Source: Patescibacteria group bacterium
GTDB taxonomy: Bacteria; Patescibacteriota; Minisyncoccia; UBA10092
Length of the DNA: 54,587 nucleotides
NCBI GenBank assembly: GCA_018826255.1
Contig: JAHJZO010000029.1
Location: 1 to 54,587, forward strand
Direction of reading: 5' to 3'
Position numbers and translations under genes: made by a program. This document shows, piece by piece, positions 19,614 to 38,341 of the stretch. Within the stretch, counting starts at the first letter, position 1; each line of letters opens with the position of its first letter. Under the pieces are notes generated by a model that saw nothing but the letters and a program-made list of their open reading frames with translations, was not told the DNA's origin and ran no database searches.

Positions 19614-19641
19614 TTTGTCAGTATTTAATATTTAAAAAATA

Positions 19642-21297: not shown

Positions 21298-21315
21298 TTC
21301 CGAATTTTAATCGTT

Positions 21316-21344
21316 TTGACAATCTAAGTCAAAAGTCATATAGT
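21316..21344 (+). promoter_or_regulatory. sigma70-like promoter for the B12-radical SAM gene
   Basis: TTGACA (21316-21321), 17 nt, TATAGT (21339-21344). GGAGGTG RBS precedes ATG 21390. Confidence 0.55.
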
Positions 21345-21389
21345 TGTCTTCAATGTTCGTTCCCAATTAAATAAAACGGAGGTGAGAAA

Positions 21390-22979: not shown

Positions 22980-22981
22980 AA

Positions 22982-23006
22982 AAATGCCCGCATTACGCGG
23001 GCATTT
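22982..23006. terminator. bidirectional hairpin terminator between convergent genes
   Basis: AAATGCCCGC-ATTAC-GCGGGCATTT. Confidence 0.7.
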
Positions 23007-23706
23007 AAATTATTCTGGCTAAATTAATTATGGTTTTTCCGATGAGAAAAACATTTTTCCAATTGATAACATTTGATTTTCCGTATACTCTTTCTTGATT
23101 ACAGAAGGGGACCTCCACATATGAAATTTTTTTCTTAACCAATTGAATCAGTATCTCTGCCATATAAGCGGGGCTGTCGGTGGTCATTGAAACCGTTTTC
23201 AATATATCGCGTTTAAAAAAACATGGGCCGTTAAAATATTTCAGATGTAAGCCGAAAAGAGCATTAAATGTCATAGTATAACTTCGTGACAACATTGAAC
23301 GAAAAAACGTGCGCTGTTGAGGATTGGCGACATAAGGAATGATGACATCGGTTTTCCCGATTTGTTCAAAAATTTTTTGTATACTTTCCAAAATTATCTG
23401 GTTATCTCCCGGAAACCAGCCGACATAATCTTTAACGGCGGCGCGGATTCCCGTCCTGATATTGTACCCCAATCCTTTTGGCTTGGGGTTGGACATCACT
23501 TTAATGCATCTGTTGTTGAGTGACAGTTCGGCGGCAACTTTTTCCGTTTCATCCGTTGAGCCGTCATTTATAATAATTATTTCATAATCGGAAAGTTCTT
23601 GATTTTCCAAAGCCAATAAAACATTTTGAATCGTTTTTTCAATGTTACCGGCTTCGTTTAAAGCGGGGATAATTATTGACACGGAATTATTCATGTCTTT
23701 AATCAT
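23005..23706 (-). CDS. GT2 polyprenol-phosphate glycosyltransferase-like (paralog of 32614..33333)
   Basis: VSIIIPALNEAGNIEKT, IIIINDGSTDET. Colinear similarity with the 32614 GT2. Confidence 0.75.
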   Translation of the reverse strand: MIKDMNNSVSIIIPALNEAGNIEKTIQNVLLALENQELSDYEIIIINDGSTDETEKVAAELSLNNRCIKVMSNPKPKGLGYNIRTGIRAAVKDYVGWFPGDNQIILESIQKIFEQIGKTDVIIPYVANPQQRTFFRSMLSRSYTMTFNALFGLHLKYFNGPCFFKRDILKTVSMTTDSPAYMAEILIQLVKKKISYVEVPFCNQERVYGKSNVINWKNVFLIGKTIINLARII

Positions 23707-23819: not shown

Positions 23820-24839
23820 ATGCAAACTTTAGTTACCGGTGGAAAGGGTTTTATCGGCAGTCATTTGATTGAAAGATTATTGAACGATGGTCACGAGGTT
23901 GTATGTCTGGATTTGGAAGAAGCGTCCAATCGAAATATTGAATGCTTTCTCCATAATGAAGGTTTCGTTCTAGTCAATAGGAATATTGTTTCTCCTTTTT
24001 CTGTTAGAAATATTAAAGACATTTTACGCGATTACGAAATTGATATAGTTTTCCATTTGGCGGGTCTTGCGGACATTGTTCCGTCAATACAAAATCCTAC
24101 GGAATATTTCGCGACCAATGTCATAGGGACGCTCAATATACTTGAAGCGGCTCGCGAATATGGAAAACTCCAAAAATTTATCTATACTTCTTCATCGTCT
24201 ATTTACGGAATTCCTGAATTTTTTGAAATTCCAACTTCCGAAGAAATTCCGATCAAACCGCAATATCCCTACGCCGAAACAAAATATCAGGGGGAAAGAT
24301 GGGTAAGTCATTATGGCCAAATTTACAAATTGCCCACGATTTCTTTGCGTCTGTTTAATGTCTATGGACCGCGGTCGCGGACAACCGGGACTTACGGCGC
24401 GGTATTCGGGACATTTTTGGCGCAGAAAATAAACGGCAAACCATTCACAGTTGTCGGCGACGGGAGGCAATCAAGGGATTTCACTTTCGTCACGGATGTT
24501 TGCGACGCTTTTGTAAGAGCGGCGGAATCCAAGATATCAGGAGAAGTATTTAATGTCGGCTCCGGAAAACCGCAAACAATTCTGCGATTGGTTGAACTTT
24601 TGGGAGGCGATATTATTCACATCCCCAAAAGGCCGGGCGAACCGGATAAAACTTGCGCCGATATATTGAAGATTAAAAACACGCTCGGTTGGACGCCGAA
24701 AGTTTCGTTTGAGGAAGGCGTGAAAATTATGCTGGATAATATTGATTACTGGAGAAACGCGCCCGTATGGACGCCCAATTCAATCTGGGAAGCGACCAAA
24801 GATTGGTTTGAATTTTTGGGCGGCAAGGAGGGAAAATGA
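23820..24839 (+). CDS. extended-SDR NAD-dependent nucleotide-sugar epimerase/dehydratase
   Basis: VTGGKGFIGSHL Rossmann motif, YAETK catalytic Tyr/Lys. GGGAGGG RBS. Confidence 0.8.
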   Translation: MQTLVTGGKGFIGSHLIERLLNDGHEVVCLDLEEASNRNIECFLHNEGFVLVNRNIVSPFSVRNIKDILRDYEIDIVFHLAGLADIVPSIQNPTEYFATNVIGTLNILEAAREYGKLQKFIYTSSSSIYGIPEFFEIPTSEEIPIKPQYPYAETKYQGERWVSHYGQIYKLPTISLRLFNVYGPRSRTTGTYGAVFGTFLAQKINGKPFTVVGDGRQSRDFTFVTDVCDAFVRAAESKISGEVFNVGSGKPQTILRLVELLGGDIIHIPKRPGEPDKTCADILKIKNTLGWTPKVSFEEGVKIMLDNIDYWRNAPVWTPNSIWEATKDWFEFLGGKEGK

Positions 24840-25474
24840 CAACACTGGCGAAAAAGACTTATCAGGAATTGAGAAATCTCGGCGTTGATAAAGCGGATGA
24901 TTATTTCAGCGCGCTGACCGGTATCTTGAAAAAAGTGCGCGTAACTTCATGCGCGCTCGAAACGGGAAACGCGCTGGAAATAAATTATGCCATTAATATA
25001 GTCGCCAATTGCTTGCGCGGCGCCCTTTTGGACAAGAAAAAATTTATTGCTGTTGGCAATGGTGGTTCGGCGGCAATCGCAATGCACGCGCTTGTCGATT
25101 ACGCCAACGCCGGCGGTTTGCAAACAATGGATTTAATGAATCCGGCATTAGTTACCTGCATGGCAAATGATTATGGGTATGAAAAGGTTTTTGCCAAAAA
25201 CATAGAAATGCATGTTGAAGAAAGCGATGTTTTGTTTGCCATCTCAAGTTCGGGCCAATCGCCTAATATTCTTTCAGCTTGCGACGCGGCAGACATAGGG
25301 TGCAAAATAATTACCTTTTCCGGCTTCAGCCCGGAAAATCCTTTGAGGAAATTAGGAAGTATAAATTTTTACGTTCCTTCTAGCCATTATGGGTTTGTGG
25401 AACTGGCCCATCAGATACTTATCCATTGTATTTTGGATTTTTACCTAAAAAAACTGATCAAAGAAAGAGGTTGA
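24836..25474 (+). CDS. gmhA: SIS-domain sedoheptulose-7-phosphate isomerase-like (GmhA-like)
   Basis: VGNGGSAAIAMH and AISSSGQSPNIL align with the GmhA pattern CGNGGS...STSGNS. About 210 aa. Confidence 0.65.
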   Translation: MTTLAKKTYQELRNLGVDKADDYFSALTGILKKVRVTSCALETGNALEINYAINIVANCLRGALLDKKKFIAVGNGGSAAIAMHALVDYANAGGLQTMDLMNPALVTCMANDYGYEKVFAKNIEMHVEESDVLFAISSSGQSPNILSACDAADIGCKIITFSGFSPENPLRKLGSINFYVPSSHYGFVELAHQILIHCILDFYLKKLIKERG

Positions 25475-25479
25475 TTCTC

Positions 25480-26583
25480 ATGAATAGAATGATTTTAGAC
25501 GGCCATAAACTATTGTGGCACAGAGAAAGGGTTGAAGCGTGGCATGGGGGCGAGAGAATAGCGCCGATTACCATTGATTGCGCCTTAACGAGAAGATGCA
25601 CTTATCGATGCGCCTATTGTTATGGTCAGTTGCAGGCAAATGATGAAAGGAAAATGACCAAAGATATTATTTTTCGTTTTCTTGATGACGCGGCCGAAAT
25701 TAGCGTTAAAGCAATTAGTTTTGTCAGTGACGGAGAGAGTACATGTTCTCCCCACCTATATGACGCTATTTTGCGCGGTAAGAAAAATGGTCTTGATATA
25801 GCGTTGGGAACTAACGGCTATTTGCTGAAAGAGGAAAATTTAGAGGAGATTCTTGCTTGCCTTACTTATCTCCGTTTCAATATCTCTGCCGCGGAACCAT
25901 CTAGTTACGCGAGAATAATGGGGTGCAAGGAAGAATGTTTTTTGGTGGTCCGCGATAATGTCAAAAAATGCGTAGAAATTAAAAAGAAAAATAATCTTGA
26001 CGTTACTATTGGCTTGCAAATGGTTCTTTTACCTAGTTTTAAGGACCAAATAATTCCTTTGGCGGAACTTGGTAAGGAGTTGGGCGTAGATTACTTTGTC
26101 ATCAAACATTGTAGTGATGACGAGAGTCATACCCTTGGGATTGATTATTCAAAATATTTTGGGTTGACCGGATTGTTGGAAGAGGCAGAGTCATATTCGG
26201 AAAGCGATTATCTGGTGAAAGCTAAATGGTCCAAAATTTTAAGCAGGGGCGAGAGAAAATATTCTCAATGTTATGGACCGGCTTTCATCATGCAGTTTTC
26301 CGGTTCCGGCCTGGTCGCTCCTTGCGGCATGCTGTTTAACAGAAAATATAAAAAATATCACATAGGAAATATCGCGAATGTTTCTTTTAAGAAAATATGG
26401 CAAAGTGAAAGATACTGGGAAGTGATTAATTTGATTGGCTCGGAAAAATTTGATGCCAGAACAATGTGCGGGTCGCTATGCCTTCAGCACAAGGCAAATG
26501 AATTTCTGTGGGATTTGAAAAACGGAAAAGCAGTGTTAAGAGATACACATGGGGAACTACCCATGCATATAAACTTTGTTTAA
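25480..26583 (+). CDS. radical SAM enzyme with Cys-containing C-terminal region
   Basis: CTYRCAYC cluster motif. Additional C-terminal cysteines (QCYGP...APCG...MCGSLC). ATG 25480 follows AGAAAGAGG. Confidence 0.75.
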   Translation: MNRMILDGHKLLWHRERVEAWHGGERIAPITIDCALTRRCTYRCAYCYGQLQANDERKMTKDIIFRFLDDAAEISVKAISFVSDGESTCSPHLYDAILRGKKNGLDIALGTNGYLLKEENLEEILACLTYLRFNISAAEPSSYARIMGCKEECFLVVRDNVKKCVEIKKKNNLDVTIGLQMVLLPSFKDQIIPLAELGKELGVDYFVIKHCSDDESHTLGIDYSKYFGLTGLLEEAESYSESDYLVKAKWSKILSRGERKYSQCYGPAFIMQFSGSGLVAPCGMLFNRKYKKYHIGNIANVSFKKIWQSERYWEVINLIGSEKFDARTMCGSLCLQHKANEFLWDLKNGKAVLRDTHGELPMHINFV

Positions 26584-26604
26584 CGGGCGCTTGACGCCCG
26601 TTTT
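26582..26604 (+). terminator. rho-independent terminator
   Basis: AACGGGCG-CTTGA-CGCCCGTT followed by TT. Confidence 0.7.
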
Positions 26605-26677
26605 AATTTGTTGTATGTTTCGGGCATAAAATTTTTTGGCACTTTTAAAAAATAATAACGAAGGAGGAGATACCATA

Positions 26678-28231
26678 ATGGCCCTGAATCGCAAGATAAA
26701 GACATTGGAAGAATTTATTGTTGAATTGAAAAAGTTGAGAAATTCCGGTAAAAAAATCATACACTGCCACGGAGTATTTGACTTGGTGCATATCGGCCAC
26801 ATCCGCCATTTTTCCATCGCCAAGGCCTTGGGGGATATTTTAGTGGTTACAATCACTCCGGACCAATACGTGAACAAGGGCCCAGGCAGGCCGGTATTTA
26901 CGGAGGCTCTCCGCGCCGAATATATTGCGGCGCTTGAGCCGGTTGATTACGTAATAATCAACAATTGGCCGACGGCGGTTGAAATAATAAAGGCGATTAA
27001 ACCGGATGTTTATGTTAAAGGCCAAGATTACGCGGACTCTGAAAAAGACGAGACCGGAGGGATACACTGTGAAAGAGAAGCGGTTGAATCGGCGGGCGGG
27101 AAGATCCACTTTACCGGCGATATTACTTTTAGTTCCAGCTCGCTTCTTAACGAATATTTTGATATTTATCCCAGAGAAGCCCAGGATTTTTTAGCCGGTT
27201 TTCGGAAAAAATATTCAGCCGAAAAAGTCATTGAAATGCTGAAAAGTTTGAAATCAATGAAAGTTTTGATTATTGGTGAAACGATTCTGGATAAATATCT
27301 TTTTATGGCTCCGATGATGGGCAGGCCGCTAAAGGGGAATCACATTGCCGCCAGAACTATTGGGGAAGAAACCCACGCCGGAGGTATTCTGGCCTGCGCC
27401 AATCACTTGGCGAATTTTTGCGGCAATGTTGATTTGATAACAGCCATTGGTAATAACGGAAATGAAGAATTCGTCAGGGCGCATCTCAAATCAAATATAA
27501 ATCTCCAGTTATTTTATCATGATGTCGCGCCGACAATTGTTAAAAGGCGATTCATAGAAACTTCTTTCAGGTCCAAATTATTCGAAGAATATATTCTTGA
27601 CGACAGGCCGTCGCCGGAGCTAGATGAGAAAATAATGAGCTATCTGCGCGGCATTCCAAGAGACCTCGTTTATGATTTGATTCTTGTTTTGGATTACGGC
27701 CACGGGCTGATCACTCCACGGCAAATAGATTTTCTCTGCAACCAGAGATTTGATTTTTTGGCGGTAAATGCTCAAACAAACACCGCCAATATGGGATTTA
27801 ATTTGATAACAAAATATCCCAGAGCCAACTATTTTTGCCTGGATGATATAGAACTGAGATTGGCTTTTCACGACAATTACAGTGAATCGGCGAAAATTAT
27901 AACGCGTTTAGCGGATAGGGCTTCAAGCTCCAGAGCTTATATGTCCAGGGCCGTCGCGGTTACATTGGGGCATTTAGGGTCAATGGTCTATGACGCGAAA
28001 AAAAATGAACTCTGCAAGGCGCCGGTGTTGTCCCAGAAAATCGTTGATACCACCGGAGCCGGAGATGCGTTTTTCGCGTTAACCGCTCCCTGCGTCGCCA
28101 AGGGATTTTCCATGGATTTAGTGGCTTTTATAGGCAACGCGGCTGGAGCTTTGGCCGTTGGCTATTTAGGCAACCAGAAATCAATTGAAGCGACTCCGTT
28201 TTTCAAATTCATAACGGCTTTGCTTAAATAA
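26678..28231 (+). CDS. bifunctional nucleotidyltransferase (N-terminal) / PfkB sugar kinase (C-terminal); HldE/RfaE-like with reversed domain order
   Basis: N-terminal HGVFDLVHIGHIRHF (HxGH cytidylyl/adenylyltransferase motif). C-terminal KVLIIGETILDKY and DTTGAGDAF (PfkB). GGAGGAG RBS. Confidence 0.7.
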   Translation: MALNRKIKTLEEFIVELKKLRNSGKKIIHCHGVFDLVHIGHIRHFSIAKALGDILVVTITPDQYVNKGPGRPVFTEALRAEYIAALEPVDYVIINNWPTAVEIIKAIKPDVYVKGQDYADSEKDETGGIHCEREAVESAGGKIHFTGDITFSSSSLLNEYFDIYPREAQDFLAGFRKKYSAEKVIEMLKSLKSMKVLIIGETILDKYLFMAPMMGRPLKGNHIAARTIGEETHAGGILACANHLANFCGNVDLITAIGNNGNEEFVRAHLKSNINLQLFYHDVAPTIVKRRFIETSFRSKLFEEYILDDRPSPELDEKIMSYLRGIPRDLVYDLILVLDYGHGLITPRQIDFLCNQRFDFLAVNAQTNTANMGFNLITKYPRANYFCLDDIELRLAFHDNYSESAKIITRLADRASSSRAYMSRAVAVTLGHLGSMVYDAKKNELCKAPVLSQKIVDTTGAGDAFFALTAPCVAKGFSMDLVAFIGNAAGALAVGYLGNQKSIEATPFFKFITALLK

Positions 28232-28236
28232 GAAAC

Positions 28237-28260
28237 AACCCCGCAAGCTTGCGGGGTTTT
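28237..28260 (+). terminator. rho-independent terminator (CCCCGCAAGCTTGCGGGG type)
   Basis: Perfect 18-nt palindrome at 28239-28256 followed by TTTT. Confidence 0.8.
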
Positions 28261-28323
28261 AAGTTTTGTAGTATAGTAACCGCCGATCTAGAGGTCTTTA
28301 AAAACTTAATTATGGAGGTGAAA

Positions 28324-29340
28324 ATGTCTAAGAAAATCTTAGTTATCGGAGGCGCCGGTTATGTCGGCAGCGCTCTGGTGCCAAAATTGTTGGACGCGGG
28401 GCACTATGTCCGTGTTTTGGACACATTTTGGTTCGGCGATGGTGTATTTAATGATTGGATTTTGAAAAATAGCCGAACAAGCATAAACAGATTGGGATTT
28501 GTTAAGGGCGATATTCGTAATTGTGATTTGGAACAAGCGATGAGAGACGTAGATTGCGTTATTCATCTGGCTTGCATTTCAAACGATCCGAGTTTTGAAC
28601 TCAATCGTGATTTAGGCCGTTCAATAAATTATGACGCGTTTTTGAAAGTTATCATAGCGGCGCAAGAGAGTAAAATCGGGCGTTTTATTTTTGCTTCTTC
28701 CAGTTCCGTTTATGGCGTCAAAAATACGCCGAACGTTACGGAAGATATGTGCCTTGAACCGCTGACGGATTATTCAAAATACAAAGCGTTTTGTGAAATG
28801 GAGCTTCAAATGATTCCAACCGAAAAATTGCCCTGGGTAATTATTCGCCCGGCGACGGTCTGCGGCTACGCGCCGCGCATGAGGTTGGATTTATCGGTTA
28901 ATATCCTGACGATGGCGGCTTTAACAAAGGGAAAAATCATGGTTTTCGGCGGATCACAGATCCGTCCCAATATCCATATTGAAGACATGACGGATTTGTA
29001 TGTTCGGCTGGTTAACGAAGAGGACGATAGAATAATCGGTCGGACATTCAATGCCGGCGGGAGTAATCTCAGCATTGAGACAATCGCCGAGCTGGTAAAG
29101 AAAATCATTGAACAATGCATGGCGAAGAAAATCGAAATTGAAAAAGTACCGACCTGGGATTTGCGTTCTTATCATGTTTCGTCGGCAAAGATAGAACGCC
29201 AGCTTGGCTGGCAAACCATTCGCGATGTACCGGATGCCGTTGTTCATTTGATGAAAGCATTCAACGCCGGATTGATTCCGAATCCCGACGACCCGAAATA
29301 CAGCAATATCAAAACAATGAAAGTGTTGAAAATCCAATAA
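28324..29340 (+). CDS. extended-SDR NAD-dependent nucleotide-sugar epimerase/dehydratase
   Basis: VIGGAGYVGSAL, YSKYK. ATG 28324 follows GGAGGTG. Confidence 0.75.
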   Translation: MSKKILVIGGAGYVGSALVPKLLDAGHYVRVLDTFWFGDGVFNDWILKNSRTSINRLGFVKGDIRNCDLEQAMRDVDCVIHLACISNDPSFELNRDLGRSINYDAFLKVIIAAQESKIGRFIFASSSSVYGVKNTPNVTEDMCLEPLTDYSKYKAFCEMELQMIPTEKLPWVIIRPATVCGYAPRMRLDLSVNILTMAALTKGKIMVFGGSQIRPNIHIEDMTDLYVRLVNEEDDRIIGRTFNAGGSNLSIETIAELVKKIIEQCMAKKIEIEKVPTWDLRSYHVSSAKIERQLGWQTIRDVPDAVVHLMKAFNAGLIPNPDDPKYSNIKTMKVLKIQ

Positions 29341-29351
29341 AGGAGGATGAA

Positions 29352-30482
29352 ATGGGCGAAGCAAAAGTTCACTATAATTATTTAGACAAGCAATTTAAGA
29401 TTGGAGGGCCTCTGGTAAAGCAGATTCTTGAAGATATTGAAGGACTTGTCAAAACCGGCCAGTTTACTCTCGGCCCGCAAGTCGCGGAGTTCGAAAAAGA
29501 GTTTGCGAAAATTTGCGGCGTCAAGTACGCGATCGGCATCAATTCGGGAACGGACGCTCTGATTCTCATCTTGAGAGCCCTGGGCATTGGATTGGGCGAT
29601 GAAGTCATCACCCAACCGAATAGTTTTATCGCTACGGCAAATGCCATCAGATTTGTCGGCGCCAAACCGGTTTTCGTCGACGTGACTGATGATTACATGA
29701 TTAACCATCTTCAGATCGAAAAGGCCGTTACGTCCAAGACGAAAGCCATATTGCCGGTTCACTTGACCGGGAATCCGGCGGGCATTGTCTGCGCCTCTGA
29801 AATTGCAAAAAGACGCAATCTTTTTCTGATAGAGGATGCGTGTCAGGCCATCGATTCATCAGTTAATGGAAAAATGGCCGGAAGCTGGGGGATCGCTGGG
29901 GCGTTCAGCCTCCACCCTTTGAAAAATCTCAATGTATGGGGCGATGGCGGAATGGTTACCACCGATGACGGCGAGCTGGCAATGAAGATTACCTTAATGC
30001 GCAATCATGGGCTGGAAACAAGGGATGATTGCGTGATGGTTGCCGGCAACTGCCGATTGCACACCATTCAGGCCGTCATCGGTTTGCGATTAATTACGGA
30101 CGTTCCCAGGATTTCCAGCAGCAGAATTATGAACGCCACGATGTATAGCAAGTATTTGGCCGATGTTGATGGGGTAAAGCTTCCTCCGCGCTTTGCCAAT
30201 GTGCGGCAGGTGTACCACACATTTGTCATTCAGGTTAAGAAGCGCGACGAACTGCAAAAATTTCTGGAACGCAACGGAGTTGAAGTTAAAGTTCATTACC
30301 CGATTCCGATTCATCTGCAGAAACCGTATCTGGAAATGGGATACAAAAAGGGCGATTTTCCCGATTGCGAAAAGCAATCAGAAAATATTATTTCTCTGCC
30401 CATTCATCAGTACTTATCGGCATCGCAGATTATGAAAGTAATTAATTTAATCAGAAAATTTTACGGCGCGAAAACCGTATAA
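29352..30482 (+). CDS. DegT/DnrJ/EryC1/StrS-family PLP-dependent sugar aminotransferase
   Basis: GINSGTDALIL. FSLHPLKNL carries the PLP-binding Lys. Confidence 0.85.
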   Translation: MGEAKVHYNYLDKQFKIGGPLVKQILEDIEGLVKTGQFTLGPQVAEFEKEFAKICGVKYAIGINSGTDALILILRALGIGLGDEVITQPNSFIATANAIRFVGAKPVFVDVTDDYMINHLQIEKAVTSKTKAILPVHLTGNPAGIVCASEIAKRRNLFLIEDACQAIDSSVNGKMAGSWGIAGAFSLHPLKNLNVWGDGGMVTTDDGELAMKITLMRNHGLETRDDCVMVAGNCRLHTIQAVIGLRLITDVPRISSSRIMNATMYSKYLADVDGVKLPPRFANVRQVYHTFVIQVKKRDELQKFLERNGVEVKVHYPIPIHLQKPYLEMGYKKGDFPDCEKQSENIISLPIHQYLSASQIMKVINLIRKFYGAKTV

Positions 30483-30490
30483 CAAACAAT

Positions 30491-30518
30491 TCCCCCGCCA
30501 TGGCGGGGGACTTTTTTT
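30491..30518 (+). terminator. rho-independent terminator
   Basis: TCCCCCGCCATGGCGGGGGA followed by CTTTTTTT. Confidence 0.8.
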
Positions 30519-30596
30519 GTTTGACAATAGTTATAATGTGTATTATTCTCCGAACACTTGAAATTCTTTGAAAATTTAATAAAAAGGAGGTAGCAG

Positions 30597-31562
30597 ATGA
30601 GCGTAAATGAGCTTTTGAAATTGTATTTTGAAATGTTGAGGATAAGGATGGTTGAAGAGAGATTGACCGATTGGTGCAATAAAAAGTTGGTAAACGCGCC
30701 GGTCCATCTCTCAATTGGTCAGGAGGCCGTGGCAGTTGGAATTATGGCGGCTTTGAACCCCGAGGATAAAATTATTTCAGGCCATCGTTGCCACGCGCAT
30801 TATCTTGCCAAGGGCGGCGATTTAAAAAAAATGTTTGCCGAAATTCTCGGTAAAGCCACAGGTTGCTGCAAAGGCAAGGGCGGCACGATGCATCTTTTTG
30901 ACGATGAAGCCGGCCATGTGATTTCGGCCCCGCTTGTTGCCGCCAGCATTTCATTTGGAGTCGGTCTCGCGCTTTCTTTCAAAATGAAAGGCGAAAATAA
31001 AATAGCAGTTGTGTTTCTGGGCGACGGAGCGGTTGAGGAGGGAATTTTTTGGGAAAGCATCAATTTTGCTTCGGTGTTTCATCTGCCCGTTTTGTTCGTT
31101 TGCGAGAATAATCTTTACGCCACTCATTCGCACATTTTACAACGCCAACCGTCGGAAAATATCACTGAACGCGTAAGACCGCATAAGGTAAACGCGCATC
31201 GCATCAATGACGGAAATAATGTTTTTCTCGTAAGGGAAATTGCCAAGGCAAAGGTTGAATTAGTCAGAAAAGGCCAGCCATGTTTTATTGAGGCCTGTAC
31301 ATACCGGCTCCGAGAACACTGGGGAGTAGGTGAAGATTGGGATCTCGGTTACCGCAGCCGGGAAGAAGGGGAAAAGTGGATGGAAAAATCCCCGCTGAAA
31401 CAAGCTGAAAAAACGTTTTTGAATCGCATCAGCGCGCCGATGCTTCATTCGAAAATTAAAAAAATGGAAGAGGCGATAAAAAAAGAAATTGACGAAGCGG
31501 AAGAATTCGCGTTCAATAGTCCGCAGCCGCCAAAAGAAGATTTACTATCGGAGGTGGGATAA
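30597..31562 (+). CDS. ThDP-dependent 2-oxoacid dehydrogenase E1 component, alpha subunit-like
   Basis: GDGAVEEGIFWESINFASVFHLPVLFVCENNLYA (ThDP-binding GDG...NN motif). Confidence 0.8.
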   Translation: MSVNELLKLYFEMLRIRMVEERLTDWCNKKLVNAPVHLSIGQEAVAVGIMAALNPEDKIISGHRCHAHYLAKGGDLKKMFAEILGKATGCCKGKGGTMHLFDDEAGHVISAPLVAASISFGVGLALSFKMKGENKIAVVFLGDGAVEEGIFWESINFASVFHLPVLFVCENNLYATHSHILQRQPSENITERVRPHKVNAHRINDGNNVFLVREIAKAKVELVRKGQPCFIEACTYRLREHWGVGEDWDLGYRSREEGEKWMEKSPLKQAEKTFLNRISAPMLHSKIKKMEEAIKKEIDEAEEFAFNSPQPPKEDLLSEVG

Positions 31563-32545
31563 TGGGAATGAGAAAGATAACCTATAAAGACGCTTCAGCC
31601 GAAGCATTGCTGATGGCGATGGAGGAAGATAAAAATGTATTTCTTATCGGCGAAGGCGCCGACCATATTAACGGTATTGGCGGGCAGTGCTTACCGGCCA
31701 TCAGAAAATTTCCCGACAGAGTTATTGATACGCCGCTTTCCGAAAACGGACTGACCGGTTTTTGCGTCGGCGCCGCGCTGAATGGAATGAGGCCGGTTTT
31801 AATTCACCAGCGAGACGATTTTATGCTGTTAGCGATGGACCAAATGTTCAATCAAGCGGCCCAGTTACGATATGCTTCCGGCGGCCGCCATAGGGTTCCG
31901 TTAACTATTTTAAGTTTTATTGCCCGCCGTCCCGGAGAGGGAGTTACGCATAGCCACAGCTTGCAGTCCATTTTTGCCCATTTTCCGGGTATTAAAGTCG
32001 GAATGCCGGCAACCGCTATGGATGCCAAGGGAATGCTTTTAAGGGCTATTTTTGACGATGATCCTGTAATAATTCTTGAACACAGACATAATCCACTTTA
32101 TAACCGCGAAGAATATGTCCCAGCAGAGCATTACGAAACATCTCTTTCGTCTCGAGTGGTGCTTTTGGGGGACGACATCACGATTGTAACAATATCCATT
32201 ACCCTTCTTGACGCATTAAAAGCGTCTTACGATTTCCTTCTGGAGAAGGTTATTTTTCCTGAAATTATTGATTTAAGATGGCTTCGGCCGCTTAATATTG
32301 AACCGATTATTCAATCAGTGAAAAAAACAGGAAAACTTTTGGTTGTTGATACCGGCTGGAAATCGTGCAGCATTTCTTCGGAAATCGTCGCTCTGGTCGC
32401 CGAGCAGGCGCATGGACATCTCAAATGTCCGCCGCGAAGAATCGCTTTACCCGACGCTCCCTGCCCGGCCAGTCAATATTTAGAGCCGTTGTACCATCCC
32501 AATTCCGAGATGATAATCCAGGCCGTTGAAGAAATGGTTAAATAA
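31562..32545 (+). CDS. E1 component beta subunit-like (transketolase pyrimidine-binding + C-terminal domain)
   Basis: TAATG overlap with the alpha gene. FLIGEG...DTPLSENGLTGFCVGAALNGMRPV is typical of E1 beta. Confidence 0.8.
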   Translation: MGMRKITYKDASAEALLMAMEEDKNVFLIGEGADHINGIGGQCLPAIRKFPDRVIDTPLSENGLTGFCVGAALNGMRPVLIHQRDDFMLLAMDQMFNQAAQLRYASGGRHRVPLTILSFIARRPGEGVTHSHSLQSIFAHFPGIKVGMPATAMDAKGMLLRAIFDDDPVIILEHRHNPLYNREEYVPAEHYETSLSSRVVLLGDDITIVTISITLLDALKASYDFLLEKVIFPEIIDLRWLRPLNIEPIIQSVKKTGKLLVVDTGWKSCSISSEIVALVAEQAHGHLKCPPRRIALPDAPCPASQYLEPLYHPNSEMIIQAVEEMVK

Positions 32546-32551
32546 TTTACG

Positions 32552-32575
32552 CCCCCGCAAGCTTGCGGGGGTTTT
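32552..32575 (+). terminator. rho-independent terminator (CCCCGCAAGCTTGCGGGG type)
   Basis: CCCCCGCAAGCTTGCGGGGG followed by TTTT. Confidence 0.8.
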
Positions 32576-32613
32576 AATTTGTTTTTTATAAATTTAATGT
32601 TAAAATTTTTCAC

Positions 32614-33333
32614 ATGAATAAATCTATTTCAATAATTATTCCGGCGTATAACGAGGAAACAAAATTAAAACCGACAGTTGATTCGGTTTTGGATCGCCTG
32701 GAAAATAACGCAATTTCCGATTTTGAGATTATTATTTTCAATGACGCTTCAACCGACAGGACGGGCGAAGTCGCCGATGATTTGGCGATGCAATTTTCTC
32801 AAGTTAAGGTGGTTCATAATGCCAAGAATATGAATCTTGGATTTAACATTGTCAGAGGTTTCCAATTGGCAACCAAAGAGTATGCCGGATTCGTTCCGGG
32901 TGATAACGAAACTGCTCCCGAGGCGCTGGATAATATTTTTCAGGCCATAGGAAAAGCGGATATTGTCATTCCTTACATACAAAATCCCGAAGTCAGAATC
33001 TGGGGCAGGCGGATTCTTTCAAAAACTTATATTGCGATAATAAATACGGCTTTCGGATTAAAAATACGATATTACAACGGTATGTGTTATTTCAAAACCG
33101 AAATGGTAAAAAAAGTCACGGTTTCTACTCACGGCTTTGCGTACATGACCGAAATATTAGTCAAACTTTTAAAATCAGGCGCTACTTTTGTTGAAGTGCC
33201 GATGATAAACAGAGCAAGAGAAAGAGGAGCAACCAAAGCGTTTAGGATTAAGAACATTGCAAGTGTTTTCAAAACGTTTTTAACTCTTTTCTGGGAAGTC
33301 CAGATTTTAAGAAAACGAATAAATCTGTCTTGA
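32614..33333 (+). CDS. GT2 polyprenol-phosphate glycosyltransferase-like
   Basis: ISIIIPAYNEE, IIIFNDASTDRT. Paralog of 23005..23706. Confidence 0.75.
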   Translation: MNKSISIIIPAYNEETKLKPTVDSVLDRLENNAISDFEIIIFNDASTDRTGEVADDLAMQFSQVKVVHNAKNMNLGFNIVRGFQLATKEYAGFVPGDNETAPEALDNIFQAIGKADIVIPYIQNPEVRIWGRRILSKTYIAIINTAFGLKIRYYNGMCYFKTEMVKKVTVSTHGFAYMTEILVKLLKSGATFVEVPMINRARERGATKAFRIKNIASVFKTFLTLFWEVQILRKRINLS

Positions 33334-33407
33334 CGGGTCTCGCTTTTTGTGGGAGCATAAGCAGCAGTTTTTTGACATTTCAATAATACATTTATAGGAG
33401 GAAAGAA

Positions 33408-34682
33408 ATGAAAGTAATGCTGATAACCCTTCCGAAGGAAGGGCAAACGAAGGACTTCACTACGCCGTCATTTTATTCATCAAATCCTGTGCGCTATATC
33501 CCTCTCGGGATATTGGCGGTCGCCACCAGCATATCGCCGGACCATGATATCCGGATATTAGACGCCGACAGTTATGGTCTTTCCATTGATTACACCGTAA
33601 GAAGAATCAATGAATTCGCGCCTGACGTTCTCGGAATCAGCGCAGTTACCAGAAAAGCATTTGCAATGAGCAAAATTCTAAAACGGGCTAACGTTTCGTT
33701 AAAAGTTGTCGGAGGTCCGCATGTTACGCATTATGCCAAGGAAACAATAAATTTAGGGGCCGACGCGACATTCAAGCATGATAGCGACCGAAATTTCAAT
33801 GAATGGCTCAATACAGGGTGTAAAAGAGGCATTTATGAGGATTATATTAGAAATATCGATTCTCTGCCGTTTATCAGAAGGGAATTTTCCGGGTTTGAAT
33901 TGGAAGATTATATGTTAAGCGGGGAAGACACGCAAAAAACGCTGTTCAAGCAAAAAAGCTTGAGGCGTCTCGCAATGATGAGTTCCAAGGGCTGTCCTTT
34001 CCGATGCGTTTTCTGCGACGTTCAGGATAAAGAATTTCGTTTTCTGTCTCCCCAAAGAGTTGTCGATGAGATGGAGCACCTTTTGTCTTGCGGCGCGAAT
34101 TCCATCCATATTCTTGACGATTGCTTCAACACCGACAGCAACAGAGTTATTAAAGTGTGCGAGGAGATTAAAAAAAGGGGACTAAAATTCCAGTGGAGTT
34201 GCAGAGGAAGGGCAGTTTTGGACAGGACCACGGCCGAAGCTCTCCAATCAGCCGGTTGCGTCAGAATGCATGTCGGGATAGAAAGCTTGAATCCGGAAGT
34301 GCTCAAATGGATGAACAAAAGAATAACGGTTGAAACGACAGGAGAGTTTTGTGATCTATGCAACGAATACGGCATAGAAATTGTCGCCTATTTTGTCCTT
34401 GGCGCGCCCATGGAAACAAGAGAATACCGCGAAAAACTTCCGGATATGATCCGCGAGTTGAAAATCAAGTATCCCTTTTTCAACATCCTGTATCCTTCGG
34501 CTAACACGAAATATTACCGAGAGCTGATGGCCAATGGAACATATAAAATGGATTATTGGCAGGCATTCGCCGAAAAGCCAGTGCCCAATTTTGAAATACC
34601 TCTTCCTCGCTCAGAGGAGTTGCAGGATGAGTTGGAAAAAACGGCCGAAAGGTGCATAAAAATATTTTTCAATGGAGGTTAA
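33408..34682 (+). CDS. class B (cobalamin-binding domain) radical SAM enzyme
   Basis: N-terminal B12-binding-like domain, then KGCPFRCVFCDV. Confidence 0.75.
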   Translation: MKVMLITLPKEGQTKDFTTPSFYSSNPVRYIPLGILAVATSISPDHDIRILDADSYGLSIDYTVRRINEFAPDVLGISAVTRKAFAMSKILKRANVSLKVVGGPHVTHYAKETINLGADATFKHDSDRNFNEWLNTGCKRGIYEDYIRNIDSLPFIRREFSGFELEDYMLSGEDTQKTLFKQKSLRRLAMMSSKGCPFRCVFCDVQDKEFRFLSPQRVVDEMEHLLSCGANSIHILDDCFNTDSNRVIKVCEEIKKRGLKFQWSCRGRAVLDRTTAEALQSAGCVRMHVGIESLNPEVLKWMNKRITVETTGEFCDLCNEYGIEIVAYFVLGAPMETREYREKLPDMIRELKIKYPFFNILYPSANTKYYRELMANGTYKMDYWQAFAEKPVPNFEIPLPRSEELQDELEKTAERCIKIFFNGG

Positions 34683-34684
34683 TA

Positions 34685-35683
34685 ATGACCCAAAGAATCG
34701 CGATTATTGGCAGCAATTCTTTTTCCGGCAGTCACCTGGTTGATTTTTTTCTGAAAAATTCAAATTGGGAAGTAATCGGCTTAAGCCGATCACCGGAATA
34801 TCCCGCGCTATTTTTGCCTTATCTTTATCAAAAAGAAAGGTCTCTGAGATTCAAATTTTTTCAGGTAAACATAAATACGCAGCTTCCGGACATTGTTCAT
34901 CTATTTGACATCATGAAGCCGGAGGTCATTGTTAATTTTGCCGCGCAGGGCAACGTCCAGTACAGCTGGAATCATCCGGAGCATTGGCTTATGACCAATA
35001 CGCTTGGCGTGGCGAGTTTGGCATTCGCCTTGCGCGACAAGCCGTACTTAAAAAGATTTATCCAAATTTCAACTCCGGAAATTTACGGGCTTTGTCGCAA
35101 TTATCAGGAGGATTCCAACTGTTACAATCCTTCAACACCGTATGCAGTTTCCAAGGTAGCCGGCGATTTGTTTCTAATGGCAATGTTTAAGAAATTTAAG
35201 TTTCCGGTTTCTTTTATCAGATCGGTTAATGTGTATGGCATTCACCAGCAACTGTATAGAATAATTCCGAGAACGATTATTTTTTTGAAAAAAGGCATTC
35301 CAGTTCCGCTTCATGGCGGGGGAAAAACGCAAAGAAGCTTCATTCATATATCGGATGTTTGCCATGGAATCCACAGCGTTATTCTTAATGGTAAAGCGGG
35401 AGAGGCGTATCACTTTTCCGGCGGGAATACAATGGAAATAAGAAACTTGGTAGAATTAATTTGCCAAAAAATGAATCGCGATTTTGAAATGTCAACCGAA
35501 ATAACCGAAGATAGGGCAGATCAGGACCCCATGATTGATTTAGATTGTTCCAGGACAAAAGAGGGAATCCTCTGGCAGCCCCAGATTGAACTCTACAATG
35601 GCATTGATGAAGTGGCTCGATGGATTAACGAAAATTGGGAAGAAATTATAAAATATCCATTTGAATATATTCATCAAGAGTAA
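34685..35683 (+). CDS. extended-SDR NDP-sugar 4,6-dehydratase-like
   Basis: IIGSNSFSGSHL, YAVSK, GGGKTQRSFIHISDV (RfbB/Gmd-like pattern). ATG 34685 follows GGAGG. Confidence 0.6.
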   Translation: MTQRIAIIGSNSFSGSHLVDFFLKNSNWEVIGLSRSPEYPALFLPYLYQKERSLRFKFFQVNINTQLPDIVHLFDIMKPEVIVNFAAQGNVQYSWNHPEHWLMTNTLGVASLAFALRDKPYLKRFIQISTPEIYGLCRNYQEDSNCYNPSTPYAVSKVAGDLFLMAMFKKFKFPVSFIRSVNVYGIHQQLYRIIPRTIIFLKKGIPVPLHGGGKTQRSFIHISDVCHGIHSVILNGKAGEAYHFSGGNTMEIRNLVELICQKMNRDFEMSTEITEDRADQDPMIDLDCSRTKEGILWQPQIELYNGIDEVARWINENWEEIIKYPFEYIHQE

Positions 35684-35703
35684 CCCCGCAACCGCGGGGT
35701 TTT
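35684..35703 (+). terminator. rho-independent terminator
   Basis: CCCCGC-AACC-GCGGGG followed by TTTT. Confidence 0.75.
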
Positions 35704-35707
35704 AATT

Positions 35708-35737
35708 TTGACAGGGAGTTAATTTTATGTTTATATT
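35708..35737 (+). promoter_or_regulatory. sigma70-like promoter for the 35789..38341 operon
   Basis: TTGACA (35708-35713), 18 nt, TATATT (35732-35737). Confidence 0.45.
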
Positions 35738-35788
35738 GCCACGAATCTTATTTCTTTAAAAATTTTAATACGATGAGGAGAATCTCTA

Positions 35789-36676
35789 ATGAAAAGCGAC
35801 AGAAGAAGGCGAAAAATTGTAATATTGGGTCATACAGGTTTTCTGGGAAGTTGTCTTTACGAGAATTTCAGCAAAGAAATTGAGTATGAAGTTTATGGGT
35901 TTTCTTCGGCTAATGTAAATTTATCGTCATCAAAAGAATGCCAAAAATTGTTGAGCGTTATTGATAAAAACAGTACCGTCATAATGACGGCGACATCTCT
36001 GGTTAAGAATAAGGACTTTATTTCCTTCAGGAATGATTTTGACATGTTACTTAATACTGCCGAAGTTTTTTCTTTGGCGGGCATCCAACATTTGATTTAT
36101 ATCAGTTCTATTGCGGTATTTGGCCGTCATTCTGAATCAGTAATAACCGAATCAAGTTATCCGAATCCGGATGACCTTTATAGTTTTTCTAAACTTTTAG
36201 GCGAGCAAATTTTTGAACGTATTTGTCGCAATTCCGGAATTCACCTAACAATTTTACGCCCTGGAACTTTTTATGGCCTCAATGATAAGACGAGTCCCTT
36301 TTTTAGATTCTTGGGAGGCATTAAAAGTAACGGGGAAATTAAAATTTATGGTGATGGTTCTTCAAAACTTTTCTGGGTTCACAAAGTGGACTTGTGTCGC
36401 ATAATCCAAGCGGCTGTCGCGAGTTGCAATCCTGGGATTTATAACATTGTTACAGAGAGCGAAGGTATTTCTTTGTTAAAACTTGCAGAATTGATGTTTC
36501 AAATTTGCGCTCTCGGGCATCGGATTAAGATTGAATTTATTCCAAGCGCAAAAGTTCCCGTTGATTTGCGGTTTGATATATCAAAATCAAAATCCTGTTT
36601 TTCAGGGATAAAACATATTAAATTGGAAGATGGTTTAAAAGAATATCTCAATCAAACTGACAAAAAGGAGGAATAA
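35789..36676 (+). CDS. extended-SDR NDP-sugar reductase/epimerase (RmlD/DmhB-like)
   Basis: ILGHTGFLGSCL, YSFSK. GAGGAG RBS. Confidence 0.6.
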   Translation: MKSDRRRRKIVILGHTGFLGSCLYENFSKEIEYEVYGFSSANVNLSSSKECQKLLSVIDKNSTVIMTATSLVKNKDFISFRNDFDMLLNTAEVFSLAGIQHLIYISSIAVFGRHSESVITESSYPNPDDLYSFSKLLGEQIFERICRNSGIHLTILRPGTFYGLNDKTSPFFRFLGGIKSNGEIKIYGDGSSKLFWVHKVDLCRIIQAAVASCNPGIYNIVTESEGISLLKLAELMFQICALGHRIKIEFIPSAKVPVDLRFDISKSKSCFSGIKHIKLEDGLKEYLNQTDKKEE

Positions 36677-36678
36677 CA

Positions 36679-37332
36679 ATGGCAGAAATAAATTTACTGG
36701 ATACTTACCCCAAAGAAAATCGCGACGTTGAGGGACGATTTAAGCAAATCACGAAAGAACATCACAAAATTGCCCGTCAATTCGGAGAGGAATTTTTTGA
36801 AGGCGACAGATTAGTCGGCTACGGAGGGTATATCTATGACGGCCGGTGGGCGAGCGTAGTTAAAAGATTCAGGGATCACTATGGGCTGACTTCTGAAAGT
36901 AGTGTCCTTGATATAGGTTGCGCCAAGGGATTCATGCTTCATGACTTCCAGCGGATTATTCCCGGCATCAAAGTGGCGGGAATAGATATTTCCGCTTACG
37001 CGATCGCCAACGCCAAAGAAAGCGTTAAAGCGTTCGCGCGGGTAGGCAATGCGAAAGAATTGCCTTTTCCCGATAAATCGTTTGACCTGGTAGTTTCTAT
37101 TACCACACTTCATAATCTGCCTATTAAAGAATGCAAACAGGCGATTCGCGAAGTGCAAAGAGTATCGCGAAAACACGCTTTTATTACTCTTGATTCCTGG
37201 CGCAACGAATACGAATGCGAGAGGATGATAAAGTGGAATTTGACAGCGCTGACCTATATGAGCGTTGAGGACTGGAAGAAATTATTCACCGAAGTCGGTT
37301 ATACCGGTGATTACTACTGGTTTATTCCATAG
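36679..37332 (+). CDS. class I SAM-dependent methyltransferase
   Basis: VLDIGCAKGFML motif I. Confidence 0.75.
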   Translation: MAEINLLDTYPKENRDVEGRFKQITKEHHKIARQFGEEFFEGDRLVGYGGYIYDGRWASVVKRFRDHYGLTSESSVLDIGCAKGFMLHDFQRIIPGIKVAGIDISAYAIANAKESVKAFARVGNAKELPFPDKSFDLVVSITTLHNLPIKECKQAIREVQRVSRKHAFITLDSWRNEYECERMIKWNLTALTYMSVEDWKKLFTEVGYTGDYYWFIP

Positions 37333-37342
37333 AGGTGGCGAA

Positions 37343-38341
37343 ATGAAAACTAAAGCGGCGGTTTTAAGAAATATTGGCGGACCATTGATAATTGAGGAAC
37401 TGGAAATCCCCAAATTGGGATTTGGACAGGTTCTTGTAAAAATACTGTATAGCGGACTTTGCCGAAGCCAGCTAAATGAAATTAAAGGATGGAAGGGCAA
37501 AGACCATATTCCTCACCTTTTGGGTCATGAGGCGTCAGGCGAGGTTCTAGAAATTGGAGATAGCGTTTCTAAAGTCAGGCCTGGCGATTATGTCGTATGC
37601 AGTTGGATAAAGGGCGCGGGATTGGATGTTCCGCTTATCAAATATCGCGCGGGCGATGGCAGTGTTGTAAATGCCGGAGCCGTGGCGACATTTTCCCAAT
37701 ACGCGGTTATTTCAGAAAACCGGCTGGTTCCGGTCTCAAGAAAAATTGGCGGTGAAGTGGCGGCCCTTCTGGGTTGCGCCGTGCCAACGGGCGCCGGCGT
37801 GGTTGATCATTCGGATATCCCGCTTGGATCAAAATTAGCCATATTCGGCATTGGGGGCATCGGCGCCAGCGCTTTATTGAAAGCTCTTTCCCTTAAAATA
37901 AGATGCTTTGCTATTGATGTGGCTCAATGGAAATTAGATTGGGCGGAAAAAATTGGAAGTGTTGCTATTCATTTTGATCATGTTAAAAAATATGCGCCCT
38001 TTGATTCTGCGGTTGAATGCAGCGGTAGCAGAACTGCTATGGAGGCAGCTATTAATCTGACTAAGAGTGATGGCGCAGTGATTGTTGCCGGCAACTTGGA
38101 ACCGGGAGAAAAAATTGCTATTGACCCTTTTGATTTAGTAAAAGGTAAAAGGATAAGCGGTACTTGGGGCGGAGGATGTTTTTTGGATGATGATATCCCG
38201 CGCTATGCTTCCGAATATCTCTTCGGTTATCTGTCACTTGAAAATTTAATAACCCGTATTTATTCTTTTGAAAAGATAAATCTGGGATTAGCAGAATTAA
38301 ATTGTGGTGAATTAATCCGGGGAATTGTAAAAATTTCCTGA
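37343..38341 (+). CDS. zinc-type medium-chain alcohol dehydrogenase/reductase
   Basis: GHEASGEVLEIG zinc motif, GLCRSQ, FGIGGIGASAL Rossmann loop. ATG 37343 chosen inside the track ORF. Confidence 0.8.
   Translation: MKTKAAVLRNIGGPLIIEELEIPKLGFGQVLVKILYSGLCRSQLNEIKGWKGKDHIPHLLGHEASGEVLEIGDSVSKVRPGDYVVCSWIKGAGLDVPLIKYRAGDGSVVNAGAVATFSQYAVISENRLVPVSRKIGGEVAALLGCAVPTGAGVVDHSDIPLGSKLAIFGIGGIGASALLKALSLKIRCFAIDVAQWKLDWAEKIGSVAIHFDHVKKYAPFDSAVECSGSRTAMEAAINLTKSDGAVIVAGNLEPGEKIAIDPFDLVKGKRISGTWGGGCFLDDDIPRYASEYLFGYLSLENLITRIYSFEKINLGLAELNCGELIRGIVKIS

Follow-up and report, generated by a model that had tools for sequence, protein, structure and literature searches.

The 54,587-nt contig JAHJZO010000029.1 of a Patescibacteria group bacterium (assembly GCA_018826255.1), hereafter the window, encodes a pair of thiamine diphosphate (ThDP)-dependent proteins that resemble the E1 alpha and E1 beta subunits of pyruvate dehydrogenase (PDH). 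The two genes belong to a conserved nucleotide-sugar cassette and form an integral part of it: gene identities, intact ThDP-binding and catalytic residues, separation of the clade from E1s linked to a lipoyl-acyltransferase (E2), and conserved synteny were all observed. On balance, the pair probably functions as an E2-independent carboligase which adds a pyruvate-derived two-carbon (C2) unit to a nucleotide-4-keto-heptose; the donor, acceptor, regiochemistry and order of steps are what we infer.

The E1 pair and its separation from dehydrogenase complexes

The E1 alpha-like, ThDP-binding subunit is encoded at 30597-31562 (321 aa; Pfam E1_dh, 1.4e-54) and the E1 beta-like subunit at 31562-32545 (327 aa; Pfam Transket_pyr, 7.9e-26, and Transketolase_C, 8.2e-25), both on the + strand. 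At 31560-31564 the TAA stop of alpha overlaps the ATG of beta as TAATG, by which beta is translationally coupled to alpha, and the ThDP motif of E1 alpha consists of GDG (aa 142-144; nt 31020-31028) and ENN (aa 170-172; nt 31104-31112) separated by 25 residues. Open reading frames (ORFs), Pfam domains and motif positions confirm the coupled pair described in the original prediction, and Pfam likewise identifies the neighbors named there, a DegT-family aminotransferase (29352-30482) on one side and a family 2 glycosyltransferase (GT2; 32614-33333) on the other. In alignments to the human and Geobacillus PDH E1s, the catalytic residues alpha-His241, beta-Glu61 (cofactor-activating) and beta-His130 are intact; these residues and the GDG...ENN motif are kept in at least 95% of 90 sequences. 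E1 alpha matches human PDH E1 alpha at 3.5e-46 and E1 beta matches E1 beta chains in the PDB at 1e-54 to 6e-56, with PDB sequence matches identifying PDH or acetoin dehydrogenase-type E1s as the nearest solved structures for both subunits. The pair has the domain composition of a heterotetrameric alpha2beta2 PDH E1, that is, E1_dh with Transket_pyr/Transketolase_C, the ThDP motif and the catalytic Glu and His. The best 120 protein matches of E1 alpha all lie above about 54% identity, and its closest relatives (54-99%) come from Patescibacteria metagenomes.

Components of a dehydrogenase complex were not detected around these genes. No Pfam match to E2 or to dihydrolipoamide dehydrogenase (E3) was found in 46 of the 47 window ORFs of at least 150 aa, the number scanned, and the six-frame translation of the window contains no E2 catalytic or lipoyl motif. 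Applied to 1.37 Mb from 84 loci, of which 81 are related loci, one is the window and two are duplicate views, the six-frame motif scan (DHRxxDG and lipoyl-lysine) returned only three spurious antisense matches. The sole Pyr_redox_2 protein in the window (47504-48463; 319 aa) is sized like a thioredoxin reductase and not like LpdA. A hidden E2/E3 near the pair was rejected on these Pfam and motif scans, and the earlier statement that the window lacks both components is borne out.

Neither subunit reaches the NCBIfam equivalog or subfamily cut-offs for PDH: E1 alpha scores 278 bits against TIGR03182 (cut-off 394) and E1 beta 248 bits against NF006667 (cut-off 321). In a tblastn search of plasmids, all matches at 35-41% identity have E2 and LpdA immediately 3', the Agrobacterium record having LipA as well; matches at 44-48% identity have no adjoining E2/LpdA. 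Four E2/E3-linked sequences from this search (Agrobacterium, Priestia pdhA, C. difficile and a Rhodococcus acetoin operon) served as controls in a neighbor-joining distance tree of E1 alphas, which carries no support values. In this tree the 86 cassette-type E1 alphas, that of the window among them, form one clade and the four controls its sister clade. The phylogenetic comparison with PDH- and acetoin-type E1s suggested at the outset hence places the pair in its own clade, outside the four controls, and does not group the window E1 alpha with bona fide E2-dependent E1s.

The alpha subunits of this clade share P35, C65, Y69, L70, E147, R183-Q184-P185, E240 and G243, which occur in neither the controls nor human E1 alpha, and the beta subunits have three clade-specific arginines, R122, R175 and the 100% conserved R84, in whose place the controls have Phe. 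Relative to PdhAB/AcoAB, the clade has HRCH for HRGH, EEG for NxG and REH(W/C/V)G for GHS. The clade arginines (alpha-R183, beta-R84, beta-R122 and beta-R175) would suit an anionic nucleoside diphosphate (NDP)-sugar rather than a lipoyl arm. Sequence comparison supports the prediction that the pair is an E2/E3-independent enzyme and not the E1 of a dehydrogenase complex. Signature residues of this kind separate the clade from true dehydrogenase E1s; its members are mislabeled as "pyruvate dehydrogenase E1" in genome annotation, which can distort metabolic reconstructions of the candidate phyla radiation. A phosphonopyruvate or sulfopyruvate decarboxylase was also considered and rejected: those enzymes belong to the ALS/POX family of ThDP enzymes, a family mismatch, and no phosphoenolpyruvate mutase is present among the annotated window ORFs.

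A conserved cassette and its probable substrate

To locate relatives, one genome per GTDB species was scanned with two family motifs, TYRx[RK]EHWG and HRCH[AG]HYL. The clade is present in at least 563 species-level genomes and is far more widespread than the view from a single locus had shown. Among the matches listed, its hosts include Patescibacteria, Alpha-, Beta-, Gamma- and Deltaproteobacteria, Rokubacteria, Planctomycetes, Nitrospinae, Elusimicrobia, Chlamydiales, Firmicutes and archaea. For neighborhood analysis, ORFs from the best 80 of these loci were clustered and rescored by tblastn with window proteins, and the counts rest on the 38 loci with full 10-kb flanks. A nucleotidyltransferase-kinase fusion (NTK) was found in 28 of them, two short-chain dehydrogenases/reductases (SDRs) in 25 (SDR-B) and 21 (SDR-A), DegT in 19, a SIS-domain protein in 14 and a radical S-adenosylmethionine (SAM)/SPASM enzyme in 11. 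In 37/38 the E1 pair has NTK, SDR-B or DegT, or more than one of them, beside it, and in 17 of 43 cases no more than 300 bp separate SDR-B from the pair. Contigs with 59-73% identical E1 alphas have the same neighbors as the window, and synteny between the E1 and sugar genes is kept across phyla at 42-74% identity. The order on the Azospirillum oryzae plasmid NZ_CP054615 is SDR-SDR-NTK-SIS-SDR-E1 alpha-E1 beta-DegT-DegT-hypothetical protein-radical SAM-NUDIX, and eight window proteins (SIS, NTK, two SDRs, radical SAM, DegT and E1 alpha/beta) are 43-56% identical to their counterparts there.

The window genes on the 5' side of the pair, all on the + strand, make up a heptose-type set. SDR-A (23820-24839; Pfam Epimerase and GDP_Man_Dehyd) is a GalE/UXS-like NAD-dependent epimerase/oxidoreductase with the motif SSSSIYG...YAETK; its best PDB relatives are UDP-glucose 4-epimerase and UDP-glucuronic acid decarboxylase, and it is 55% identical to Azospirillum SDR2. 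Like SDR-B, which is also GalE-like, it has no 4,6-dehydratase Asp/Glu pair. The SIS-domain protein (24836-25474; Pfam SIS_2) is a GmhA-like sedoheptulose-7-phosphate isomerase that matches the NCBIfam phosphoheptose isomerase model at 1.3e-22, under the cut-off, and is 46% identical to the Azospirillum SIS protein. It is followed by the radical SAM/SPASM enzyme (25426-26583; Pfam Radical_SAM and SPASM; 56% identity to the Azospirillum counterpart) and by NTK (26636-28231; 531 aa; 45% identity to the Azospirillum protein). NTK is a reversed HldE-like fusion, in which an N-terminal rfaE_dom_II (residues 32-161, 4.8e-30) precedes a C-terminal rfaE_dom_I (residues 202-514, 8e-22) by NCBIfam; the order of nucleotidyltransferase then PfkB heptose-7-phosphate kinase is the opposite of that in HldE, and this fusion is kept across phyla at about 510-530 aa in 44 loci. 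SDR-B (28249-29340) is a putative nucleotide-heptose C4 dehydrogenase, 50% identical to the Azospirillum SDR directly 5' of E1 alpha, and its best PDB match is 6VO6/6VO8 (7.7e-35), entries which we take to be those of Cj1427. The aminotransferase next to the pair belongs to the DegT/DnrJ/EryC1 family (29352-30482; Pfam 9e-103; 46% identity to Azospirillum DegT1) and resembles PseC, ArnB and DesI but under their NCBIfam cut-offs. Reading DegT and the radical SAM enzyme as a DesI/DesII-type couple was rejected, given a DesII score of 36 bits against a cut-off of 450, which is generic similarity only. The sugar operon in which the pair had been placed is thereby upheld for its sugar genes and may be described more precisely as heptose-type, from its GmhA-like and HldE-like members.

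The pair accompanies two non-homologous systems of heptose activation, one HldE-like (the window and Azospirillum) and one HddA/HddC-like, on pDMC1 of Solidesulfovibrio magneticus, where the E1 genes occur with an HddA-like kinase, an HddC-like nucleotidyltransferase, GmhA and the L-2-hydroxyglutarate oxidase LhgO (the GDP-heptose route). Because these unrelated systems have SDR-B, E1 and DegT in common, a nucleotide-keto-heptose is indicated as the substrate. In some proteobacterial loci with E1 alpha/beta, two DegT genes and PIG-L there is no SIS or NTK nearby, and the pair co-localizes with nucleotide-sugar-acting enzymes; RfbF/RfbG/RfbH-like CDP-hexose genes, assigned by eye, accompany it in one further locus (L048). 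A nucleotide-keto-sugar would be shared by all these settings, which disfavors a DXS-like role on sugar phosphates. The pair often directly follows an SDR whose likely function is to make a 4-keto sugar, and SDR-B is itself the putative C4 dehydrogenase that would supply one.

Related loci also offer a possible electron acceptor for this oxidation. Cj1427 is a GDP-heptose C4 dehydrogenase whose bound NADH is reoxidized by alpha-ketoglutarate, yielding L-2-hydroxyglutarate, as GDP-4-keto-heptose is made (PMC10680097). Genes for L-2-hydroxyglutarate oxidase (lhgO) were found in four related loci (L086, at 22365-23567, L019, L058 and L073), directly 5' of E1 alpha in L058, and the copy on pDMC1 of S. 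magneticus exceeds the NCBIfam cut-off for this enzyme. The embedding of lhgO in heptose/E1 clusters implies an alpha-ketoglutarate/L-2-hydroxyglutarate redox shuttle for a sugar C4 dehydrogenase.

A pathway can be proposed on this basis. The SIS protein would isomerize sedoheptulose-7-phosphate, the reversed HldE-like NTK would phosphorylate and nucleotidylate the isomerized heptose, and SDR-B would oxidize C4 to give the nucleotide-4-keto-heptose, with L-2-hydroxyglutarate oxidase recycling alpha-ketoglutarate in some relatives. The E1 pair would decarboxylate pyruvate to hydroxyethylidene-ThDP, and this acyl-anion equivalent would go to the sugar carbonyl, most likely at C4, and not to lipoamide; the product of this acyloin-type carboligation would be a sugar with a C-acetyl branch. 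A zinc-dependent alcohol dehydrogenase (Zn-ADH), DegT, the remaining SDRs and the radical SAM enzymes may then transaminate, reduce or methylate the branched sugar, which the small GT2 and YfhO-type GT-C enzymes could place on the cell surface. Pyruvate as donor, C4 as site and a C2-branched sugar as product are what analogy would predict. The original prediction of C2 transfer onto an NDP-ketosugar is partly supported, in that it fits an E2/E3-free pair in a conserved nucleotide-sugar cassette; the likely substrate is a C4-oxidized nucleotide-heptose and not the product of a 4,6-dehydratase.

Alternative explanations

Several observations weigh against C4 carboligation. Both lipoamide-acylation histidines are retained, so that sequence alone leaves room for a lipoyl partner. 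The attribution of PDB 6VO6/6VO8 to Cj1427 is presumptive. A GDP-fucose-synthase-like 4-reductase follows E1 beta in S. magneticus, and a C4 tertiary alcohol is hard to reconcile with this enzyme unless a side-chain ketone is what it reduces. Two clade members on Streptomyces plasmids sit in non-sugar secondary-metabolite clusters: on pSGRIFU1 of S. griseofuscus (L084, 11998-14044) the neighbors are genes for a condensation-domain protein, acyl carrier protein, phosphopantetheinyl transferase, thioesterase and ketosynthase, and on pSALBX2 of S. albogriseolus (L088, ~11974-13982; ORFs identified by eye) for an adenylation enzyme, an acyl-CoA dehydrogenase and P450s. The E1 clade is therefore recruited outside glycan biosynthesis too, and clade membership alone is no proof of a sugar substrate. 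Four related loci also encode an acetolactate synthase (ALS)/YerE-like ThDP enzyme, recognized by eye from ThDP motifs (L048, 15262-16992; L050, 8149-9951; L052, 17904-19673; L036, 13599-16319 and 19094-20939), with the gene in L050 immediately 5' of the E1 pair. Such co-occurrence implies two different ThDP-dependent steps in those clusters, of which the E1 step may not be YerE-type branching; if the YerE-like enzyme performs the C2 branching, the E1 pair must act otherwise. Finally, the roles of the antibiotic-sugar pairs AviB1/B2, Pau11/12 and EvdU5/S3 rest on knock-outs and proposals (PMC4425429, PMC4753412, PMC10338323).

The nearest alternative keeps carboligation and moves it: the pair would add C2 at an exocyclic C6/C7 carbonyl or to a 3-keto intermediate, creating a nonose skeleton ending in CH3-CO- for amination by DegT. 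Such chemistry would account for the DegT gene immediately 3' of E1 beta in many loci, which could aminate the new ketone, for UDP-glucose-dehydrogenase-family genes in 12 loci (by way of an aldehyde intermediate) and for weak heptose_epim matches, and HldD-type SDRs are enzymes that oxidize heptose C6. However, the SDR with the closest linkage to the pair resembles 6VO6/6VO8 and not HldD, and the cassette has no conserved dedicated primary-alcohol oxidase, so we consider this route unlikely. A role outside sugar carboligation altogether, either 2-oxo acid decarboxylation to provide an acyl or aldehyde unit (for example to N-acylate the DegT product) or an AcoAB-like C-C cleavage beside the sugar ketone, is quite improbable. 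The YerE-like enzymes of the four loci leave room for another E1 function, C-C cleavage occurs within the E1 family in the acetoin enzyme (the context of L091) and DegT partners are frequent; on the other hand, the cassette has no oxidant or acyl carrier by which hydroxyethyl-ThDP could become an acyl donor, NTK, SDR-B, SDR-A and E1 persist in subclades that lack DegT, and ring cleavage would destroy the glycosyl donor.

Contiguous NTK-SIS-E1 alpha-E1 beta genes in several loci (L011, L047, L065 and L076), weak DXP_synthase_N and dxs matches, and transaldolase genes in five loci might instead speak for a DXS/transketolase-like enzyme condensing a 2-oxo acid with an aldose phosphate into a ketose phosphate for the SIS isomerase and NTK. 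We regard this as very improbable: pyruvate would yield a 1-deoxyketose that a GmhA-type aldose-ketose isomerase could not use, many loci have E1 with two DegT genes and PIG-L and no SIS or NTK, and the pair is found with two unrelated activation systems as well as with RfbF/RfbG-like CDP-hexose genes (L048). Barely credible is the view that the pair serves ordinary pyruvate or acetoin catabolism as a dehydrogenase E1, with its E2/E3 encoded elsewhere and its place among sugar genes a coincidence. Its closest solved structures are indeed PDH E1s and the catalytic histidines are kept, yet the scores fall under PDH cut-offs, the clade is separate from E2-linked E1s, the synteny with sugar genes spans phyla, and the 84 loci scanned contain no E2. 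To our knowledge, Patescibacteria generally lack PDH complexes and the tricarboxylic acid cycle.

C2 transfer to a nucleotide-4-keto-heptose accordingly stays our preferred explanation. A broader proposal, possible and somewhat short of probable, is that the clade comprises E2-independent E1 carboligases which, together with the cassette, make undescribed C-branched or C2-extended (nine-carbon) amino-heptose nucleotide sugars; polyprenyl-phosphate-dependent GT-C enzymes (YfhO-/ArnT-like) would deliver these to the cell envelope in Patescibacteria, Rokubacteria, many Proteobacteria and some archaea. Were the chemistry confirmed, lineages that are for the most part uncultivated would prove to carry a new family of higher-carbon surface sugars. 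The cassette provides the field with defined candidate substrates (a nucleotide-heptose, a Cj1427-like oxidase and alpha-ketoglutarate), and Azospirillum oryzae KACC 14407 and Solidesulfovibrio magneticus RS-1 are cultured hosts for genetics.

The surrounding locus and known systems

The pair had been described as its own unit with a leader and a terminator, and signals of this type are present on the + strand. A GC-rich, terminator-like hairpin with a T-run follows DegT (30491-30510), a sigma-70-like promoter match TTGACA-17-TATTCT lies at 30521-30549 (10/12 positions, as a consensus match only), and an AAGGAGG ribosome-binding site, read from the sequence, lies 6 nt ahead of the E1 alpha ATG (30584-30590). 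A terminator-like hairpin containing the palindrome CCCCGCAAGCTTGCGGGG stands 3' of E1 beta (32551-32572). This exact 18-nt GC-rich palindrome occurs three times in the window (28239-28256, 32553-32570 and 44978-44995), each time just past a stop codon, for which the chance expectation is 0.03, and variants follow DegT (30493-30508) and another SDR (35684-35699); CCCCGCAAGCTTGCGGGG is either a recurrent intergenic terminator or an element of the REP (repetitive extragenic palindromic) type. Since near-identical hairpins stand behind other genes of the locus, the E1 pair is not uniquely insulated, and the hairpins are not special to it. A riboswitch or leader RNA ahead of E1 alpha was ruled out, as an Rfam scan of the whole window gave no matches.

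On the 3' side, again on the + strand, the small GT2 (32614-33333; 239 aa; Pfam Glycos_transf_2) is the candidate transferase for the modified sugar; the order E1 alpha-E1 beta-GT2 recurs in L002 and L092, which makes it a conserved downstream neighbor in Patescibacteria. Next come a B12-radical SAM enzyme (33408-34682), a 4,6-dehydratase-like SDR (34652-35683), an RmlD-like SDR (35789-36676), a methyltransferase (36679-37332) and the Zn-ADH (37265-38341). The last two recur as a couple beside the E1 pair in six loci (L004, L005, L012, L050, L052 and L092), and the close relative L092 also has a heptosyltransferase-family (GT9) gene.

The window as a whole is a large envelope-glycan locus of a low-GC organism, which also holds several small GT2s, GT4s, a Wzx-like flippase, a Wzy_C/TPR protein, an initiating Bac_transf and many methyltransferases. 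Three YfhO-type GT-C paralogues (2715-5081, 13137-15596 and 16457-18856) and three GT2s of about 235 aa (2029-2739, 23005-23706 and 32614-33333) were noted, and these sets suggest several parallel modules for polyprenyl-phosphate-sugar synthesis and extracytoplasmic glycosylation in one locus. A 211-aa UDP-glucose/GDP-mannose dehydrogenase fragment lies beside an IS200-like Y1 transposase encoded on the other strand (45056-45691/45770-46450); it comprises the central domain and part of the N domain, and the gene is probably truncated. GC content is 41-46% in the cassette (~24000-38000) and 33-36% in the YfhO/methyltransferase region (12000-22000), a contrast which, with conservation across phyla, is compatible with horizontal acquisition of the cassette.

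Variant arrangements were seen among the relatives. The proteobacterial sub-cassette E1 alpha-E1 beta-DegT-DegT-PIG-L occurs in L045, L046, L059, L060, L063 and L068, and L045 and L068 add a large multi-pass membrane protein (GT-C/ArnT-like on a tentative reading of its sequence alone), a small GT2 and a NUDIX protein; the predicted functions resemble an Arn-like pathway of lipid-carrier modification. Natural single-chain E1 alpha-beta fusions (ORFs of 641-718 aa) occur in several phyla (L006, L027, L031, L053, L061 and L077) and would be handy for expression and structural work. In proteobacterial cassettes, the gene just 5' of that for the radical SAM/SPASM enzyme always encodes a conserved protein of some 360-390 aa that matches neither Pfam nor NCBIfam models (as in L085, 16270-17352; cluster c10, in 11 loci), and it has no counterpart in the window. 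Literature searches turned up no relevant publication on this cassette.

By layout and proposed role, the window pair is most readily likened to AviB1/AviB2 of avilamycin (AAK83190/AAK83191), Pau11/Pau12 of paulomycin and EvdU5/EvdS3 of everninomicin, PDH-E1-like pairs proposed to attach a C2 branch to 4-keto sugars with pyruvate as donor (PMC4425429, PMC4753412, PMC10338323). For two decades the two-carbon branches of antibiotic sugars have been ascribed to such pairs, and the reaction has never been reconstituted. As in those systems, E1 alpha and E1 beta lie inside a sugar cluster with no E2/E3; a 4-keto-sugar enzyme stands alongside the antibiotic pairs, and the window has the nearby SDR-B, which resembles 6VO6 and would act at C4. 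The antibiotic pairs belong to actinomycete pathways for hexose- or pentose-derived sugars, whereas the window pair belongs to a heptose-type envelope cassette spread over many phyla. Sugar-cluster E1 pairs are thus no actinomycete curiosity: the clade of the window pair, present in at least 563 species-level genomes of bacterial and archaeal phyla, is part of a conserved nucleotide-heptose cassette. The AviB precedent, which had been called established, holds as a proposed C2-branching role resting on genetics; for avilamycin and paulomycin the proposals have glycosyl transfer come first, so that the C2 unit would not be attached on the NDP-sugar (PMC4425429, PMC4753412, PMC10338323). C2 transfer by these pairs is undemonstrated in vitro (PMC10338323), and Pau11 and AviB1 are just 37% identical to each other.

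The reaction proposed for the window pair is shared with YerE of yersiniose synthesis, which performs ThDP-dependent C2 transfer from pyruvate to C4 of an NDP-ketosugar for a surface polysaccharide (in PMC4753412, PMC10338323). YerE is a single-chain flavoprotein of the ALS type and of another ThDP family; the window pair shows E1_dh and transketolase-type Pfam domains only, and not a single chain with TPP_enzyme_N/M/C. With YerE-like genes beside the E1 pair in four loci, the two enzymes may not be interchangeable. PdhAB and AcoAB share fold, domains, ThDP motif and catalytic Glu/His with the pair at about 35-41% identity, but E2 and E3 adjoin all four controls, and the window pair has no E2, E3 or LipA nearby. 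DXP synthase and transketolase belong to the same ThDP superfamily and form C-C bonds independently of E2 through a ThDP-bound C2 carbanion; they are single chains or split pairs with Transketolase_N, use aldose phosphate acceptors and have weak similarity to the pair (1e-6 to 1e-10), DXP_synthase_N matching over 66 residues only (1.1e-6) and NCBIfam scores being 29-40 bits against cut-offs of 395-510. The capsular heptose pathway of C. jejuni, with GmhA, HddA, HddC, the C4 dehydrogenase Cj1427, epimerases and reductases, parallels the upstream steps, as nucleotide-heptose synthesis followed by C4 oxidation is proposed here too and lhgO, HddA-like and HddC-like genes occur in related loci. That pathway has no ThDP enzyme, and to its general scheme the window cassette adds the E1 pair, an aminotransferase, radical SAM enzymes and a reversed HldE-like fusion.

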